Below are positions 28,351-64,000 of a stretch of DNA of 64,000 nucleotides, piece by piece; position 1 is the first letter of the stretch; every line of letters begins with the position of its first letter. The position numbers and the translations under genes were made by a program. Location: NCBI GenBank assembly GCA_001940855.1, contig MSGS01000059.1, forward strand, positions 2,245 through 66,244. Reading direction: 5' to 3'. This stretch comes from Christensenellaceae bacterium Phil1. Its GTDB lineage: Bacteria > Bacillota > Clostridia > Christensenellales > CAG-138. Below the pieces are notes generated by a model, which saw only the letters and a program-made list of their open reading frames with translations, was not told where the DNA came from and did no database searches.

Positions 28351-28478
28351 ATACTGATAATATTTTGTTTGTCAAGGGGGAAAATAAAACGTGGGGGAGT
28401 TTTATTTATGATGCTTTAATACTGCCTGGCAGCTTCGAGCCGTTCCCTTTGTTCGTTTTACTCCCCCCTACACACTAT

Positions 28479-29459
28479 CGTCACTTGCGTCACATCGTCA
28501 CAAACAGGCTAATTGTCTACGTTTTTTGTGTGACGCAAGGTGTGACGATAAATTCTGCGTCACACGGCGGGCTTACGCATGCGGTGAAATTGCGCTTAGG
28601 CGTTGTAGGGGCCGTCATTGGCGGCCCGCCCGTGGCTATATTTTTTACCTCAACCCCTCAGTCAAACCTTCGGTTTGCCAGCTCCCTCGACAGGGAGCCT
28701 TTTGGTGCGCTTTATAAGCTTACATATTAAGCCTGCCCTGAAAGGGGAGGTGGCAATGAGCGTCAGCGAATTGACGGAGGGGTTATAAAGCAGCTTACAG
28801 CTCTTTGTTTATTACAACCCCTCAGTCTCACTTCGTTCGACAGCTCCTCGTAAAGGGGCGCCTTTATGCCGCAGGCATTACATGAGGTCTGAAAGGCCGA
28901 ATCATCTGTTACAGCTGTGCTGTCTTATGTACCGCAGTGACTAAAGATTAACAAAGAAAGGTATATAGAAGTAGTATATAGTGAAGGCGGTAGATACGTT
29001 GCGCTTTCACCTGAGCGTGGTGACACGCCTTAAAGCTGTCCCCGTTTACGGGGAAAGTGGCATGGCGTAGCCATGACGAAAGGGGAACGGTTAAAGTAGC
29101 CAAGCAGTTTTACTATTCCCCCTCAGACAATCCGCCTTACGGCGTATTGCCAGCTCCCTCGACAGGGCGCCTTTTGGTGCGCTTTATAAGCTTACATATT
29201 AAGCCTGCCCTGAAAGGGGAGGTGGATTTTGCGAAGCAAAAGCCGGAGGGGTTGAAAAAAGAAAGAGGCTTCGCTTGTTATCGTCAACCCCTCAGTCACG
29301 TCTTACGCCGTGCCAGTTCCCCGTCCGGGGAGCCTTATGGTGAACGGATTTCACCGCGTACGTAAGCCCGCCGTGTGACGCAGAATTTATCGTCACACCT
29401 TGCGTCACACAAAAAACGTAGACAATTAGCCTGTTTGTGACGATGTGACGCAAGTGACG
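28479..29459. repeat. Composite non-coding element bounded by 112-bp inverted repeats
   Basis: 28479-28590 is the reverse complement of 29348-29459 with two mismatches; each arm has six CGTCAC/GTGACG motifs. Confidence 0.88.
28605..28628 (+). repeat. GTAG-type REP-like palindrome
   Basis: GTAG-GGGCCGTCA-T-TGGCGGCCC-G; second copy inverted at 42168-42191. Confidence 0.65.
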
Positions 29460-29553
29460 CAGATGTATGGGAGGGGGTGGAGCAGCTTAATTGTGCTGTA
29501 TAAAAAGGCTCCCCTTTACGGGGAGCTGTCGAACGAAGTGAGACTGAGGGGGT
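28652..29553. repeat. Cluster 1 of the two-hairpin ~50-bp repeat, eight units in alternating orientation
   Basis: Units at 28652-28699(+), 28731-28784(-), 28816-28862(+), 29035-29085(-), 29118-29171(+), 29203-29253(-), 29286-29334(+), 29507-29553(-); scaffold AACCCCTCmGTC-hairpin-CCAsCTCCCy-loop-rGGGAGCC. Confidence 0.88.
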
Positions 29554-29611
29554 GACGATATAAAAAAAGGGAACGCCAGCGCGTTCCCCTGCAAGCTTAT
29601 TCAGTCTATAC

Positions 29612-41864: not shown

Positions 41865-42225
41865 GACGGAGGGGTTGACGATAACAAGCGAAGCTTCTTT
41901 CTTTTTTCAACCCCTCCGGCTTTTGCTTCGCAAAACCCACAACGCTGGTTGGAATATGGTCGTCTTGCTACGCTGCCGCTTGCAATACTCCCTATTCCGC
42001 CCGATTCTCCCCTCGCTGCATCGCCCACTGGGCGCGCTCGGCTCGAATCCCCTTTCAGGGCAGGCCCATCATATAAGCTTGTAAAGCGCACCAAAAGGCT
42101 CCCCTTTACGGGGAGCTGTCGAACGAAGTGAGACTGAGGGGTTGACGTAAACACGCATAGCCACGGGCGGGCCGCCGATGACGGCCCCTACAACGCCTAA
42201 GCGCAATTTCCCTGCATGCGTAAGC
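41865..42225. repeat. Cluster 2 of the two-hairpin repeat with a nested 107-bp insert and a GTAG REP
   Basis: Inverted mosaic copy of parts of 28571-28740 and 29162-29297; units 41865-41876 (partial), 41909-42066 (interrupted), 42097-42143. Confidence 0.85.
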
Positions 42226-56313: not shown

Positions 56314-56338
56314 GGTATTGCGCCGCCAACCCTAAAAA

Positions 56339-56652
56339 GCTGTCCCCGCGGGCGGGAAAGTGGCTGCGAATGAAATGAGCAGACGGAGGGGTTAAAAAGA
56401 AGCTTGCAGTTCTTTGTCTGTTTCAACCCCTCAGTCGCCTGACGGCGTCAGCTCCCCGTCCGGGGAGCCTTTTGGACTCCCTCAGTCAAACCTTCGGTTT
56501 GCCAGCTCCCTCTAAGAGGGAGCCTTTTGGCAATGTACGCGCTCGGGGGCGATAGTGTGTAAAATAGGTTAGGTGGGATTAACCGTGCGGCGCAAAAAAA
56601 CCTCCCTATAAAGAGAGGTTGCAATAAGCATTAGCGAATCGGCGGATGGGGG
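56339..56652. repeat. Cluster 3 of the two-hairpin repeat, four units
   Basis: Units 56339-56393(-), 56425-56469(+), 56476-56524(+), 56599-56652(-, degenerate). Confidence 0.82.
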
Positions 56653-63488: not shown

Positions 63489-63491
63489 AGC

Positions 63492-63540
63492 ACTCCCTCA
63501 GTCAAACCTTTGGTTTGCCAGCTCCCTCCAAGAGGGAGCC
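63492..63540 (+). repeat. Two-hairpin repeat unit immediately upstream of the DUF559 gene
   Basis: 47/49 identical to 56476-56524. Confidence 0.88.
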
Positions 63541-63563
63541 TTTTGGCAGAAAGGAAGATAGTT

Positions 63564-63920
63564 ATGTCCTTGCCGTATAAAGGGGAGTTAATACCAAGGG
63601 CGCGGGAACTCAGAAAGGAGTCCACAAAGCAGGAAAAGCATTTGTGGTATGATTTCCTTAAGGATTATCCCGTAAGATTTCAACGGCAAAAAACAATAAA
63701 GGGGTTTATAGCCGATTTTTATTGCGCCAAGGCAAAATTGATTATTGAATTAGATGGTAGGCAGCATTATTCGGAGCAGGGGAAGCTATATGACAACGAG
63801 CGTTCCGCTTTGCTGGGCGAATACGGTTTAACGGTGCTTAGGTTTTCCAACTATGCCGTTGACAATGATTTTGAGAGCGTGTGCGCTCTGATAGATGCAA
63901 CGGTAAAAGCGCGGGTATAA
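63564..63920 (+). CDS. DUF559 / Vsr-like endonuclease domain protein (118 aa)
   Basis: RARELRK..T..E..LW, FQRQ, FIADFYC, LIIELDG.QH, D..R...L...G..VLRF.N; RBS AAGGA before ATG 63564. Confidence 0.9.
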   Translation: MSLPYKGELIPRARELRKESTKQEKHLWYDFLKDYPVRFQRQKTIKGFIADFYCAKAKLIIELDGRQHYSEQGKLYDNERSALLGEYGLTVLRFSNYAVDNDFESVCALIDATVKARV

Positions 63921-63947
63921 AGGCACTGCGGCTTTAAGACATCATAA

Positions 63948-64000
63948 GCCTCCCTCTTAGAGGGAGGTGGCTGCGAGCGCAGTGAGCAGACGGAAGGAGT
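63948..64000 (-). repeat. Inverted two-hairpin repeat unit downstream of the DUF559 gene
   Basis: GCCTCCCTCTTAGAGGGAGGTGG-hairpin-GACGGAAGGAGT, same scaffold as 28731-28784 and 56339-56393. Confidence 0.85.

Follow-up and report, generated by a model that had tools for sequence, protein, structure and literature searches.

A DUF559 gene family tied to two-hairpin palindromic repeats suggests a new kind of repeat-enzyme partnership

A short palindromic repeat dispersed through the genome of the gut bacterium Christensenellaceae bacterium Phil1 is specifically tied to genes of the DUF559 family, well beyond the stretch of 64,000 nucleotides analysed here (the window), and the link is not chance. 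The DUF559 gene and the repeat units around it behave as one entity and travel together across genomes and phyla. We infer that the encoded nuclease may cut, nick or spread the units, and the pairing suggests an undescribed partnership akin to that between REPs and their transposase, with an enzyme of a different kind.

The DUF559 locus

The features of the locus are listed below, where R1 is a covariance model of the unit made from the window alone and G000 is the genome of the window, which is 96% complete.

63564..63920, + strand: DUF559 gene, 118 amino acids, ATG at 63564 and TAA at 63918-63920, apparently intact
63490..63548, + strand: forward unit before the gene, R1 match G000:C59:65733-65791, 69 bits, alignment A1
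63941..64000, - strand: inverted unit after the gene, overrunning the window end by 3 nt, R1 match G000:C59:66185-66247, 63.8 bits
G000:C59:66253-66311, + strand: further unit just outside the window, R1 match
G000:C59:66328-66390, - strand: further unit just outside the window, R1 match

The gene matches Pfam PF04480 (DUF559) over profile positions 6-107 of 109 with 99.8 bits against a curated cut-off of 20.6 (E 1e-28), and it has its own ribosome-binding site, AAGGAAG, at 63551-63557; the preliminary description of this DNA, which placed a 118-residue DUF559/Vsr-like gene between a forward and an inverted unit, is borne out. The unit at 63490-63548 belongs to the subtype with the ACTCCCTC tail and the AGTC tag, and is made up, in order, of the tail, a short hairpin (AAACC/GGTTT), GCCA, a hairpin (GCTCCCTC/GAGGGAGC) and CTTTTGG. 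Genes for an EamA-type and a MATE-type transporter flank the DUF559 gene. No transposase domain was found in the gene by domain search, and no recombinase gene adjoins the locus. A reading of the gene as part of a defence system was rejected, as its PADLOC matches are weak and partial and involve the nuclease domain only (DpdF 4e-6, mREase_II 1.5e-4).

The protein has all 13 residues that are invariant in the family (R17, E24, W28, Q42, D51, F52, E62, D64, G65, H68, R80, R93 and N96 in an alignment with 54 relatives), including the acidic/histidine core (D ... E-x-D-G-x-x-H) formed by D51, E62, D64, G65 and H68, which is invariant in 54 sequences. An AF2 model built from the alignment has a pLDDT of 87 (48 for the single-sequence model), and its best PDB folds are 3hrl, 3r3p (I-Bth0305I) and 1cw0 (Vsr). 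Among solved structures, 3hrl (NGO0050) is the best match in both sequence (E 5e-12) and fold (TM 0.67/0.83); 3r3p has a TM of 0.69/0.81, its chains A and B giving E 3e-4 to 6e-4 and TM 0.67-0.69 on the query. The NCBIfam YcjD equivalog scores 61 bits, far under its cut-off of 218. As modelled, the protein is a small nuclease of the Vsr/EDxHD fold with its catalytic residues intact.

The resemblance to Vsr (1cw0, TMq 0.65) fits an alternative in which DUF559 is a host-type repair nuclease that nicks T:G mismatches, is linked to palindromes through extruded imperfect hairpins or by guarding methylated sites, and keeps the stems perfect while moving nothing. According to the available text of PMC12907096, T:G mismatch nicking has been proposed for VsrA, a DUF559 protein of Caulobacter that is functionally tied to a cytosine methyltransferase. 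However, the neighbours of the window gene are transporter genes, with no methyltransferase gene adjoining it at this locus, and repair activity would leave the flanking of the gene by units unexplained. We consider the alternative improbable; the distribution of the gene, described below, also speaks against it.

Structure and dispersal of the repeat unit

In each palindromic DNA unit of about 58 nt, a pyrimidine tail and a tag (CGTC or AGTC) are followed by two hairpins, the first short and variable and the second GC-rich, with GCCA between them. The tags of 137 parsed units of G000 are AGTC (72), CGTC (41), CGGC (16) and others (8), and the tagged hairpin, which GCCA follows, has a stem of 3-6 bp and a loop of 3-4 nt. 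The stems are 96.6% paired and covary (300 double changes versus 94 in shuffled data), while G-T pairs are nearly absent (about a dozen G-U cells among 1,381 per-pair cells), as expected for DNA palindromes; the scarcity of G-T pairs would also suit a repair nuclease. A 17-nt core pattern has six matches where 0.03 would be expected by chance.

Genome-wide, G000 contains at least 150 units by R1 and 154 by nhmmer, the latter in 64 clusters. Within these clusters the units mostly alternate in orientation with linkers of 19-31 nt, and inverted-to-forward pairs with facing tags and linkers of 24-31 nt are common. The repeat is short, palindromic, clustered and alternating, and its earlier characterization as REP-like is upheld. 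The other clusters of the window are as follows.

28650..29559, strand not applicable: largest cluster of the window, eight alternating units, linkers of 23-34 nt, two inserts of about 165 nt
41865..42149, strand not applicable: intact inverted unit at 42089-42149 and forward unit at 41908-42070 split by an inserted module of about 110 nt
56334..56532, strand not applicable: three units, one inverted and two forward, of which the final one (56476-56532) is a near-twin of the unit before the DUF559 gene

The 55/57 identity reported for these near-twins (96% of 57) was confirmed. In the window, 14 units were detected by covariance model or nhmmer, besides interrupted or partial ones at 41865-42070, which makes the original estimate of about 17 a fair one. 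The identical 31-bp linkers noted at the outset are also real, the sequences at 28675-28753 and 29147-29225 being 99% alike over 79 nt. Two of the spaces that had been likened to the slot occupied by the gene must be reinterpreted: the 74-bp slot at 56525-56598 has on its right side a plain hairpin, with no closing unit detectable by either model, and the slot of about 170 bp at 28863-29034 contains a separate repeated module of about 160 bp that is found at five places in the genome.

A described RNA family was considered for the repeat and rejected, since at gathering scores Rfam identifies only a tRNA in the window, and the largest cluster has only chance-level matches (E 0.03 and 0.27). 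Units fall inside crude orfs in 38 of 154 cases in G000, creating spurious orfs. In a 20-kb stretch compared with the closest relatives, the sister species G011 and G003, the seemingly single units sit within longer repeats of 160-190 nt, and the contigs of both sister species break at repeats, leaving no clean boundary between filled and empty unit sites. The units break metagenome assemblies as well. Annotation would benefit from a model of the unit.

Association of the units with DUF559 genes

All three DUF559 loci of G000 are bracketed by units. This genome has 2,427 crude orfs with a minimum length of 100 amino acids; 57 of them lie within 100 bp of a unit at one end, but only two have units that close at both ends, one of these two being DUF559. 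No recurrent paralogue family that might represent another mobilizer was found among the 55 unit-adjacent orfs of G000. A search of G000 for HUH/RAYT genes (Y1, PF01797) gave no matches while positive controls were detected; the enzyme is non-HUH, as first proposed.

To look beyond G000, 59 DUF559 loci were picked on protein similarity alone, mostly from Clostridia and some from other phyla. At E<=1e-3, R1 has at least one match in 49 of the 59 loci and a match within 100 bp of the orf in 45, and 93 of its 124 matches are no more than 200 bp from the DUF559 orf. In a test that requires no model, the upstream and downstream flanks resemble each other (at least 30 bits) for 28 of 57 DUF559 genes, compared with 3 out of 90 non-DUF559 orfs from those loci. 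Most flanking units of the 59 loci contain CGTC or CCGTC, and the type of tail clusters on the DUF559 tree (15 changes versus 31.9 in shuffles).

Among 151 genomes of the order, units and DUF559 occur together in 14 and are both absent from 118; six carry units without DUF559, and 13 carry DUF559 without units (odds ratio 21, Fisher p 2e-8, uncorrected for phylogeny). Many genomes are fragmented MAGs that break at the repeats, and unit counts per genome may be lower bounds, with at most 150 or 36 matches scored in each. The co-occurrence does not extend to every genome: six of the 20 unit-positive genomes of the sample have no DUF559, and among the relatives of G000, units are present where no DUF559 was detected in G001 (25), G004 (11) and G012 (23). 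G009 has an intact DUF559 gene and no expansion of units.

That gene and units behave as one entity is seen in genomes in which the only units of a given type flank a DUF559 gene. In the complete genome of G141 (3.6 Mb), the sole two R1 matches (E<=1e-3) do so, as do all four sites of the unit hairpin of G009; the latter hairpin type is present in the four genomes with that gene lineage and has no sites in G001, which is without it. In other phyla, R1 identifies units around a Novosphingobium DUF559 gene: one forward (4e-9) and one inverted (7e-5) unit upstream, and another forward unit (5e-6) downstream. Hairpin units flank DUF559 genes in sphingomonads, Azospirillum, Sinorhizobium and Neisseria, GC-rich hairpin units lie alongside the DUF559 homologues of Neisseria and E. 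coli, and in a plasmid collection with 33 matches, eight of ten loci inspected by eye have GC-rich hairpin units on both sides of DUF559.

These patterns bear on the possibility that the association is passive, the units being generic hairpin cassettes that build up in small genes undergoing horizontal transfer, or travel along with them, with no enzymatic tie to DUF559 and some other mechanism to multiply them; such cassettes would provide a terminator-like stem and T-run in one direction and a Shine-Dalgarno-like GGAGGGG in the other. However, DUF559 alone shows the pattern, with no other family recurring beside the units of G000 and few matching flanks among the other orfs of the same loci. 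The exclusive placement of units at the DUF559 genes of G141 and G009 is likewise contrary to it, and the recurrence of one unit architecture beside one gene family in both Bacillota and Alphaproteobacteria would be difficult to account for if the two had no functional connection. Passive association is judged unlikely, although some observations in the next two sections favour it.

Arrangement of the units around the gene

The nearest upstream unit of DUF559 genes is mostly inverted, its GGAGGGG tail serving as the ribosome-binding site, and the nearest downstream unit is forward or inverted about equally often. All four combinations of orientation occur. The forward-to-inverted slot first described is not the layout of the family; inverted unit, gene, forward unit is usual, and the window copy has the rarer reverse. 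With so variable a layout, the module is unlike a classic element with defined ends. Passive association would accommodate the variable orientation, the ribosome-binding site supplied by the upstream unit and the terminator-like GC stem with TTTT, as the units could be expression signals. Outside the module of G141 there are direct repeats of 60 nt, possibly a long target duplication; no comparable flank repeats were found in four further loci (L107, L110, L092 and L093), of which L093 has a direct match of 25 nt only.

Another explanation is an invertible switch, in which a recombinase would flip the DUF559 segment by means of flanking inverted units and turn expression on or off. In the available part of PMC9881135, predicted inversion targets flanked by inverted repeats show enrichment for 'DUF559 domain-containing protein' (odds ratio 14.3), and the window copy does lie between 57-nt inverted copies about 400 bp apart. 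However, the best flank matches of the 28 DUF559 genes with similar flanks are direct in 20 cases and inverted in eight, there is no recombinase gene next to the window locus, and the units are a genome-wide family rather than a private pair. Reads of a same-strain run (X1) cover the whole locus, and contigs of that run have no strand-changing joint there. An invertible switch is very improbable.

Insertion site and gene lineages

The window copy, which belongs to a separate DUF559 lineage, is an insertion, and five relatives have the corresponding site empty. In G000 the spacer between the EamA and MATE genes is 767 bp long and holds, in order, a forward unit, the gene, and inverted, forward and inverted units, whereas in G003, G004, G001, G012 and G009 it is 46-110 bp long, without gene or units. 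No target-site duplication is readable at the G000 insertion by comparison with the spacers of the relatives. DUF559 is patchy, being present in four of 15 relatives in the genus, and in G000 it also decays to fragments. Patchiness, insertion at a site empty in relatives and decay are not the pattern of a housekeeping gene and argue against a host-type repair nuclease.

The window copy had been thought to be the autonomous source of the other units, an idea that fails on comparison with the sister species. This gene lineage was not found in G011 and G003, whose assembled sequence has only another DUF559 lineage. Yet the unit subtype of the window has 51 sites in G011 and 36 in G003, compared with 25 in G000, and the main subtype, with 51 sites in G011 and 49 in G003, is as common there as in G000. 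Amplification of the cognate subtype in G000 only is thereby excluded, and the abundance of both subtypes argues against a simple scenario in which a new gene arrives and units amplify. That units are abundant and persistent where the matching gene lineage was not found is a point in favour of passive association.

The DNA sequences of DUF559 copies that share a genome are 65-77% alike, which excludes the paralogues as recent copies; nothing points to the gene having spread recently inside a genome. The C29 locus was rejected as a clean insertion of a module because the segment that sets it apart from G001 and G012 is 1.3 kb long and includes another gene, a larger indel of the kind that passive association would allow. 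In two pig-gut metagenomes and one metatranscriptome, the genes flanking DUF559 are 95-99% covered, the DUF559 bins are near zero and contigs stop at units. One contig joint, from 2468 to 2873 of L069, skips the gene, with a shorter side of only 21 letters.

Proposed mechanism

We lean towards regarding the DUF559 gene and its bracketing units as one selfish module and the protein as a unit-specific endonuclease; some action of the enzyme on the units, of whatever kind, seems, by a narrow judgement, probable. The enrichment of DUF559 in the table of PMC9881135 is an independent hint in favour of this reading. Within this reading, it is conceivable though doubtful that the enzyme drives multiplication of the units, and a further doubtful variant is that it only promotes the spread of its own gene into pre-existing units. 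The nuclease would recognize the unit, most likely at the tag or at the foot of a hairpin, on cruciform or single-stranded DNA, and would nick or cut there. Since a PD-(D/E)XK nuclease cannot rejoin DNA, any copying would fall to host repair: repair from another unit-bearing locus could then duplicate units and sometimes the gene, in the manner of homing. Unit dimers without the gene, which number from tens to more than 100 in some genomes while elsewhere units occur only at the gene, might be non-autonomous derivatives comparable to the MITEs of insertion sequences or the REPINs of RAYT loci.

Comparison with known systems

Insertion sequences and MITEs differ from the module, which has no transposase domain, no fixed flanking orientation and no readable target duplication. 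IS110/IS1111 elements that insert into REPs (ISPpu9; available text of PMC12288879) are similar in that a mobile gene lies inside, flanked by REPs, but they have a DEDD transposase, defined ends and near-identical copies, whereas the module has no transposase and its gene copies are divergent. Very-short-patch repair by Vsr differs in that no C5-cytosine methyltransferase adjoins the window gene.

The nearest functionally characterized fold is that of I-Bth0305I (3r3p) and the EDxHD Vsr-like homing endonucleases. Enzymes of the I-Bth0305I class are encoded by selfish genes that spread by cutting a cognate empty site, into which the gene is then copied by repair. I-Bth0305I has an extra N-terminal DNA-binding region that the 118-residue protein of the window does not have, and its gene is in a group I intron of phage recA with one unique target, whereas the DUF559 gene stands alone within intergenic clusters of repeats, and each genome offers many potential targets. 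The five empty EamA-MATE sites hold no unit and no recognizable homing target. Published classifications, in the available text of PMC3424549, group DUF559 with Vsr and I-Bth0305I.

A close parallel in organization is the REP/REPIN-RAYT system (REPtrons of Proteobacteria). Both have short extragenic palindromes that number tens to hundreds and are often arranged as inverted pairs or clusters; both have a low-copy enzyme gene flanked by its own repeats (here three of three loci in G000 and 45 of 59 elsewhere), and in both the repeat families are patchy among relatives. The enzymes differ, being a 118-residue nuclease of the PD-(D/E)XK/Vsr fold here and an HUH Y1 (IS200-like) transposase there, and DUF559 is without strand-transfer chemistry. 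The tag is CGTC/AGTC rather than GTAG at the hairpin foot, the unit consists of two hairpins, and the gene is horizontally patchy and decaying rather than inherited stably in one copy.

Few non-coding features of bacterial genomes are as common as REP-type repeats, and to our knowledge an enzyme, RAYT, is known for the GTAG class alone. DUF559, for its part, ranks among the largest small-protein families of bacteria for which we know of no assigned role; this includes NGO0050 of Neisseria gonorrhoeae (3hrl) and YcjD-type proteins of E. coli, which resemble the window gene in that their Neisseria and E. coli homologues have hairpin units alongside. The CGTC-tagged REPs of Di Nocera et al. (2013; PMC3733652), in the available text of that paper, have no transposase association and 'apparently lack a dedicated transposase'; their listed hosts include sphingomonads, Azospirillum, Sinorhizobium and Neisseria and no Firmicutes. 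Their stems are 8-9 bp long and start with A-T pairs, with loops of 4-5 nt. They share with the units described here short loops, a CGTC-type tag left unpaired at one end and, behind the stem, a tail of the CCA type (here GCCA), and head-to-head dimers, predominant there, are common here. They appear to differ in the tagged hairpin, which has 3-6 bp in G000 instead of 8-9 bp, although the Novosphingobium unit has a stem of about 7 bp starting with A-T pairs. Other differences are that AGTC outnumbers CGTC in G000, and that a second, GC-rich hairpin and a pyrimidine tail are present here.

A full-text literature search, supplementary files apart, found no paper that links DUF559 to palindromic or flanking repeats, the nearest being the unexplained enrichment in a table of PMC9881135, in its available part. 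We tentatively suggest, as a possibility that we hold to be rather unlikely in its full breadth, that DUF559 nucleases may be the dedicated enzyme that CGTC-tagged REPs and related GC-hairpin REPs have long seemed to lack, in bacteria ranging from Clostridia to sphingomonads, rhizobia, Neisseria, Deinococcus and cyanobacteria. If so, this would explain why odd low-complexity ends are annotated in thousands of genes labelled 'endonuclease domain-containing', as well as the scoring of DUF559 among inversion targets flanked by inverted repeats. The wide and specific pairing of DUF559 with the units offers a testable answer to both the problem of orphan REPs and that of the role of DUF559. Alongside the REP-RAYT system it would be a second, non-HUH partnership of REPs with an enzyme, in which a Vsr-fold nuclease cuts and host repair copies the units and the gene.

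The DUF559 locus and its repeat family

The last gene of the window, a 118-aa orf matching Pfam DUF559 (E 1e-28), is bracketed by a forward and an inverted copy of a two-hairpin repeat (the unit), as the preliminary description had stated. The features below are in window coordinates, or in those of the window's contig (C59) of the genome G000 where so marked.

63490-63548, +, forward unit of 57-59 nt, ending 16 bases 5′ of the orf
63564-63920, +, intact DUF559 gene (ATG 63564, TAA 63918-63920)
63941-64000 and 3 nt past the window end, -, inverted unit, starting 21 bases 3′ of the orf
G000:C59:66253-66311, +, extra forward unit outside the window, next in the contig after the inverted unit
G000:C59:66328-66390, -, extra inverted unit outside the window, pairing with the preceding forward unit

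The reported near-identity of the upstream unit to 56476-56532 was confirmed (55/57 bases), and the slots described elsewhere between forward and inverted units are correct except for two, of 74 bp (56525-56598) and about 170 bp (28863-29034).

The consensus of 14 aligned window copies is CAACCCCTC-(A/C)GTC, a short variable hairpin, GCCA, GCTCCCC-loop-GGGGAGC and CTTTTGG, with compensatory changes in both hairpins. The proposed genome-wide count, made with a covariance model built from window copies alone (R1), gave at least 150 copies in G000 (2.85 Mb), and iterated nhmmer gave 154 copies in 64 clusters. Orientation within clusters mostly alternates, with linkers of 19-24 nt (forward-to-inverted) or 24-31 nt (inverted-to-forward); 20 larger gaps (90-600 nt) are filled with other small repeated modules, and the only gene inside a large cluster gap in G000 is the DUF559 gene. 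No Rfam family corresponds to the unit, and the sole Rfam match at gathering score in the window is a tRNA gene (538-611, -).

Pairing is seen in 96.6% of stem cells across 124 units of other genomes, with 300 double changes versus 94 in shuffles; these figures are flattered by an alignment fitted to the model, and slid controls collapse. G-T pairs are nearly missing from the stems, so the constraint looks like that on a DNA palindrome read on both strands, not a one-strand RNA.

Other repeated elements observed in G000 are as follows (window coordinates unless a contig is named).

28866-29031, AT-richer module of about 160 nt in unit clusters, always between two units; other copies at C7:56-206, C74:5270-5428, C75:83401-83569 and C9:133449-133601
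41938-42048, module of about 110-115 nt at a constant position inside the unit, between the short and GC-rich hairpins, either a nested insertion or a longer ancestral form of the unit; other copies at C32:33600-33815, C5:19440-19662, C50:155-340, C74:5482-5689 and C77:41287-41624
C26:99706-99874, C32:11718-12056, C66:48129-48292 and C77:41287-41624, third module, about 140 nt long and containing palindromes of its own, adjoining units
28460-28590 and 29348-29478, pair of inverted 131-nt repeats (92% complementary, GTGACG/CGTCAC-rich) on either side of the largest unit cluster, perhaps a distinct element with terminal inverted repeats
28571-28639 and 42157-42225, 69-nt repeat in inverted orientation, 96% alike, that includes a GC-rich palindrome unrelated to the unit
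C67:20399-21309 (outside the window), 14 evenly spaced copies (period about 69 nt) of a repeat containing GCTCCCCACGAGGGGGAGC, which looks like a CRISPR array

Association of DUF559 genes with the unit

Units bracket every one of the three places in G000 that have a Pfam DUF559 match, namely the intact window gene, a copy truncated at its 5′ end (C29:22084-22278) and a fragment containing a stop codon (C75:16081-16254). G000 has 2,427 crude orfs that are 100 aa or longer; a unit lies within 100 bp on one side of 57 of them and on both sides of only two, one of which is the DUF559 gene. No recurrent paralogous family was found among 55 unit-adjacent orfs of G000, and no HUH/Y1 transposase in that genome.

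Fifty-nine loci were selected purely by protein similarity (best segments 39-78% identical); they come from Oscillospiraceae, Acutalibacteraceae, Selenomonadaceae, Acidaminococcaceae, Anaerolineaceae, Armatimonadota and others. In their 184 kb, R1 made 124 matches (E≤1e-3), and the distance to the orf is 200 bp or less for 93 of them and 100 bp or less for 69; 49 loci have a match, 45 of them within 100 bp, and the ten that have none take in the five most distant proteins (L062, L063, L066-L068). In a model-free control, the 150 nt upstream matched the 150 nt downstream (≥30 bits) for 28 of 57 DUF559 genes versus 3 of 90 other orfs of the same loci. Of nine loci taken from relatives in the genus and the order, five (L001, L003, L004, L005, L006) have units next to the gene, and at the remaining four none were found. 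As far as sequence can show, the association is established. At one locus (L091, in the order genome G141), 60-nt direct repeats that are 93% alike (1080-1139 and 1867-1925) lie just outside a forward unit-DUF559-inverted unit module, possibly a long target duplication or recombination scar.

The nearest upstream unit is usually inverted (about 22 loci versus 3 with a forward unit in the R1 table of the 59 loci), likewise on C29 and C75, in the genomes G120 and G044, and in Novosphingobium. The start codon follows 1-19 nt after the purine tail of that inverted unit (GACGGAGGGG and variants), which thus serves as the ribosome-binding site. The downstream unit is forward at 11 loci and inverted at 12, and the orf often extends into it. 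The window copy, which has an AAGGAAG site of its own, follows a minority layout (forward unit, gene, inverted unit) found also in G141 and at two further loci (L028, L033).

The two units flanking one gene are 84-97% alike, whereas paralogous genes within one genome are just 65-77% alike; every copy of the gene thus has a pair of its own. Unit tail types (CTCCCTC, CCTCTC, CCCCTC, CTCATC) cluster on the protein tree (15 changes versus 31.9 in shuffles); shared ancestry alone could explain this clustering. The window gene's row is labelled there with the genome's main type, although its own flanking units are of CTCCCTC type, like the nearest rows.

Comparison of related genomes

In G000 the window DUF559 gene lies in a 767-bp spacer whose neighbours are an EamA-type and a MATE-type transporter gene; in G003, G004, G001, G012 and G009 this spacer measures 46-110 bp and lacks both gene and units. 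In the sister species G011 the contig stops in other repeats, 195 bp past the EamA-type gene. A related copy of the 69-nt repeat follows that gene directly (G011:C168), in the orthologous spacer. Read mapping at the locus is uninformative because assemblies break at repeats.

R1 matches, DUF559 genes and hairpin sites (C29-type, window-type, main-type) in genomes of the genus
G000: 137 matches; intact DUF559; 9, 25, 54 sites
G003: 146 matches; intact DUF559; 12, 36, 49 sites
G011: 142 matches; intact DUF559; 5, 51, 51 sites
G001: 25 matches; no DUF559 detected; 0, 1, 1 sites
G004: 11 matches; no DUF559 detected
G012: 23 matches; no DUF559 detected
G009: no match at E≤1e-5, the gene being surrounded by four weak units of a different subtype; intact DUF559; 4 (all at the gene), 0, 0 sites
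Remaining eight: no matches; no DUF559 but one weak partial match (G006)

The main-type count of G000 is inflated, since 14 of its sites come from the CRISPR-like array, which carries the main-type hairpin. The full-length genes found in G011, G003 and G009 have the truncated C29 copy as their orthologue; the window gene belongs to a different lineage, whose nearest relatives (≤65% identity) are in other families. The expectation that copy number tracks DUF559 holds for C29-type hairpins, whose counts follow the presence of the C29-type gene, but not for window-type and main-type units, which are abundant in G011 and G003 regardless, the matching gene lineage being assembled in neither. Gene and units thus travel together, but the presence of the window gene does not simply set unit abundance.

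The wider order was surveyed in 151 genomes (≥90% complete); only 36 R1 candidates per genome were scored, so that unit negatives are soft.

Units and DUF559: 14 genomes
Units only: 6 genomes
DUF559 only: 13 genomes, 4 of them with the domain inside large proteins
Neither: 118 genomes

The odds ratio for co-occurrence is 21 (Fisher p 2e-8, kinship ignored). Among the matches listed, a unit and a DUF559 match are about 200 bp or less apart in at least 9 of the 14 genomes that have both, and re-scoring of five DUF559-only genomes gave weak units in four. In the complete genome G141 (3.6 Mb) the sole two R1 matches flank a DUF559 gene, with no other units, and in the complete genome G120 the best of six adjoins DUF559.

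Occurrence beyond Firmicutes

A tblastn search of a plasmid collection found 33 records with DUF559 homologues (33-44% identity), ten of which were inspected, hairpins being judged by eye except in Novosphingobium. GC-rich hairpin units lie on both sides of the gene in eight (Azospirillum lipoferum, Sinorhizobium meliloti, Neisseria gonorrhoeae, Sphingomonas parapaucimobilis, Deinococcus aetherius, Synechocystis, Pseudanabaena, Novosphingobium) and downstream only in two (E. coli, Photobacterium). The Novosphingobium record (1.16 Mb) has five R1 matches, two of them at the DUF559 gene, and its unit is built up in the same order as the window's (ACCCCTC, CGTC, short A-T-footed hairpin, GCCA, CCTCCCC stem).

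328-399, +, forward unit, upstream (R1 4e-9)
417-492, -, inverted unit, upstream (R1 7e-5)
501-806, DUF559 gene match
844-911, +, forward unit, downstream (R1 5e-6)

On the S. parapaucimobilis plasmid (NZ_CP155753.1, 112589-112999) the gene, with a hairpin at each end, lies between sufB and sufC of an operon and looks like a selfish insertion. In E. coli (NZ_CP141089.1) a ycjD-type DUF559 gene has on its 3′ side three GC-rich hairpin units whose tails are of CCCTCACCCC type, which suggests that the association is open to study in a model organism.

The protein and its possible mechanism

Thirteen residues are invariant across 54 DUF559 sequences, including D51, E62-x-D64-G65 and H68. The solved folds closest to an AF2 model made with their alignment (pLDDT 87) are 3hrl, 3r3p, the nuclease domains of PvuRts1I and AbaSI, and Vsr; 3hrl is the structure of NGO0050, of unknown function, and 3r3p that of the I-Bth0305I homing endonuclease's catalytic domain. 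The available text of PMC3424549 classes DUF559 with Vsr and I-Bth0305I, and that of PMC12907096 describes VsrA, a Caulobacter DUF559 protein, as bringing about methylation-sensitive DNA damage.

The preferred reading, judged slightly more probable than its negation, is that the DUF559 nuclease would recognise its own units and that gene plus flanking units would form a selfish module. Within this reading, multiplication of the units by break-induced copying is a shade more probable than plain homing of the gene into already existing units, each by itself being less likely than not, and the present data do not separate the two. Four observations count against any enzymatic link: unit orientation around the gene varies, no recent gene copies were seen, unit-rich genomes without a DUF559 gene exist, and in one genome the gene is present with no expansion of units. 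Neither a cleavage nor a mobility event was seen. Two old questions, the role of DUF559 and what moves non-GTAG REPs, become directly testable.

Comparison with known systems

A REPtron is a RAYT gene flanked by its REPs, and its defining features are an HUH enzyme and a GTAG tag. The enzyme gene described here is likewise flanked by its own repeat family, but the arrangement has neither the HUH enzyme nor the GTAG tag. Of the REPIN-like system with a non-HUH nuclease first proposed, the REP-like family, the flanked gene and the lack of HUH/Y1 in G000 stand, whereas unit abundance is not simply tied to the window gene.

In full-text searches, no paper was found that connects the DUF559 family with palindromes, REPs, MITEs or repeats flanking the gene. 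The family is mentioned alongside homing endonucleases in the available text of PMC3424549, and alongside inteins in that of a Thermosynechococcus genome paper. It is also among the gene families enriched for flanking inverted repeats (odds ratio 14.3), with no explanation given in the accessible part of PMC9881135; flanking by units supplies one for the enrichment as reported there. CGTC REPs, in the portion of PMC3733652 that describes them, have a CGTC tag, a CCA tail, short loops and head-to-head dimers, with no transposase found; compared by description only, the tagged short hairpin of the unit fits them, but its stem appears to differ in length. What is new here is a REP-like family with a flanked enzyme gene, but of another enzyme class.
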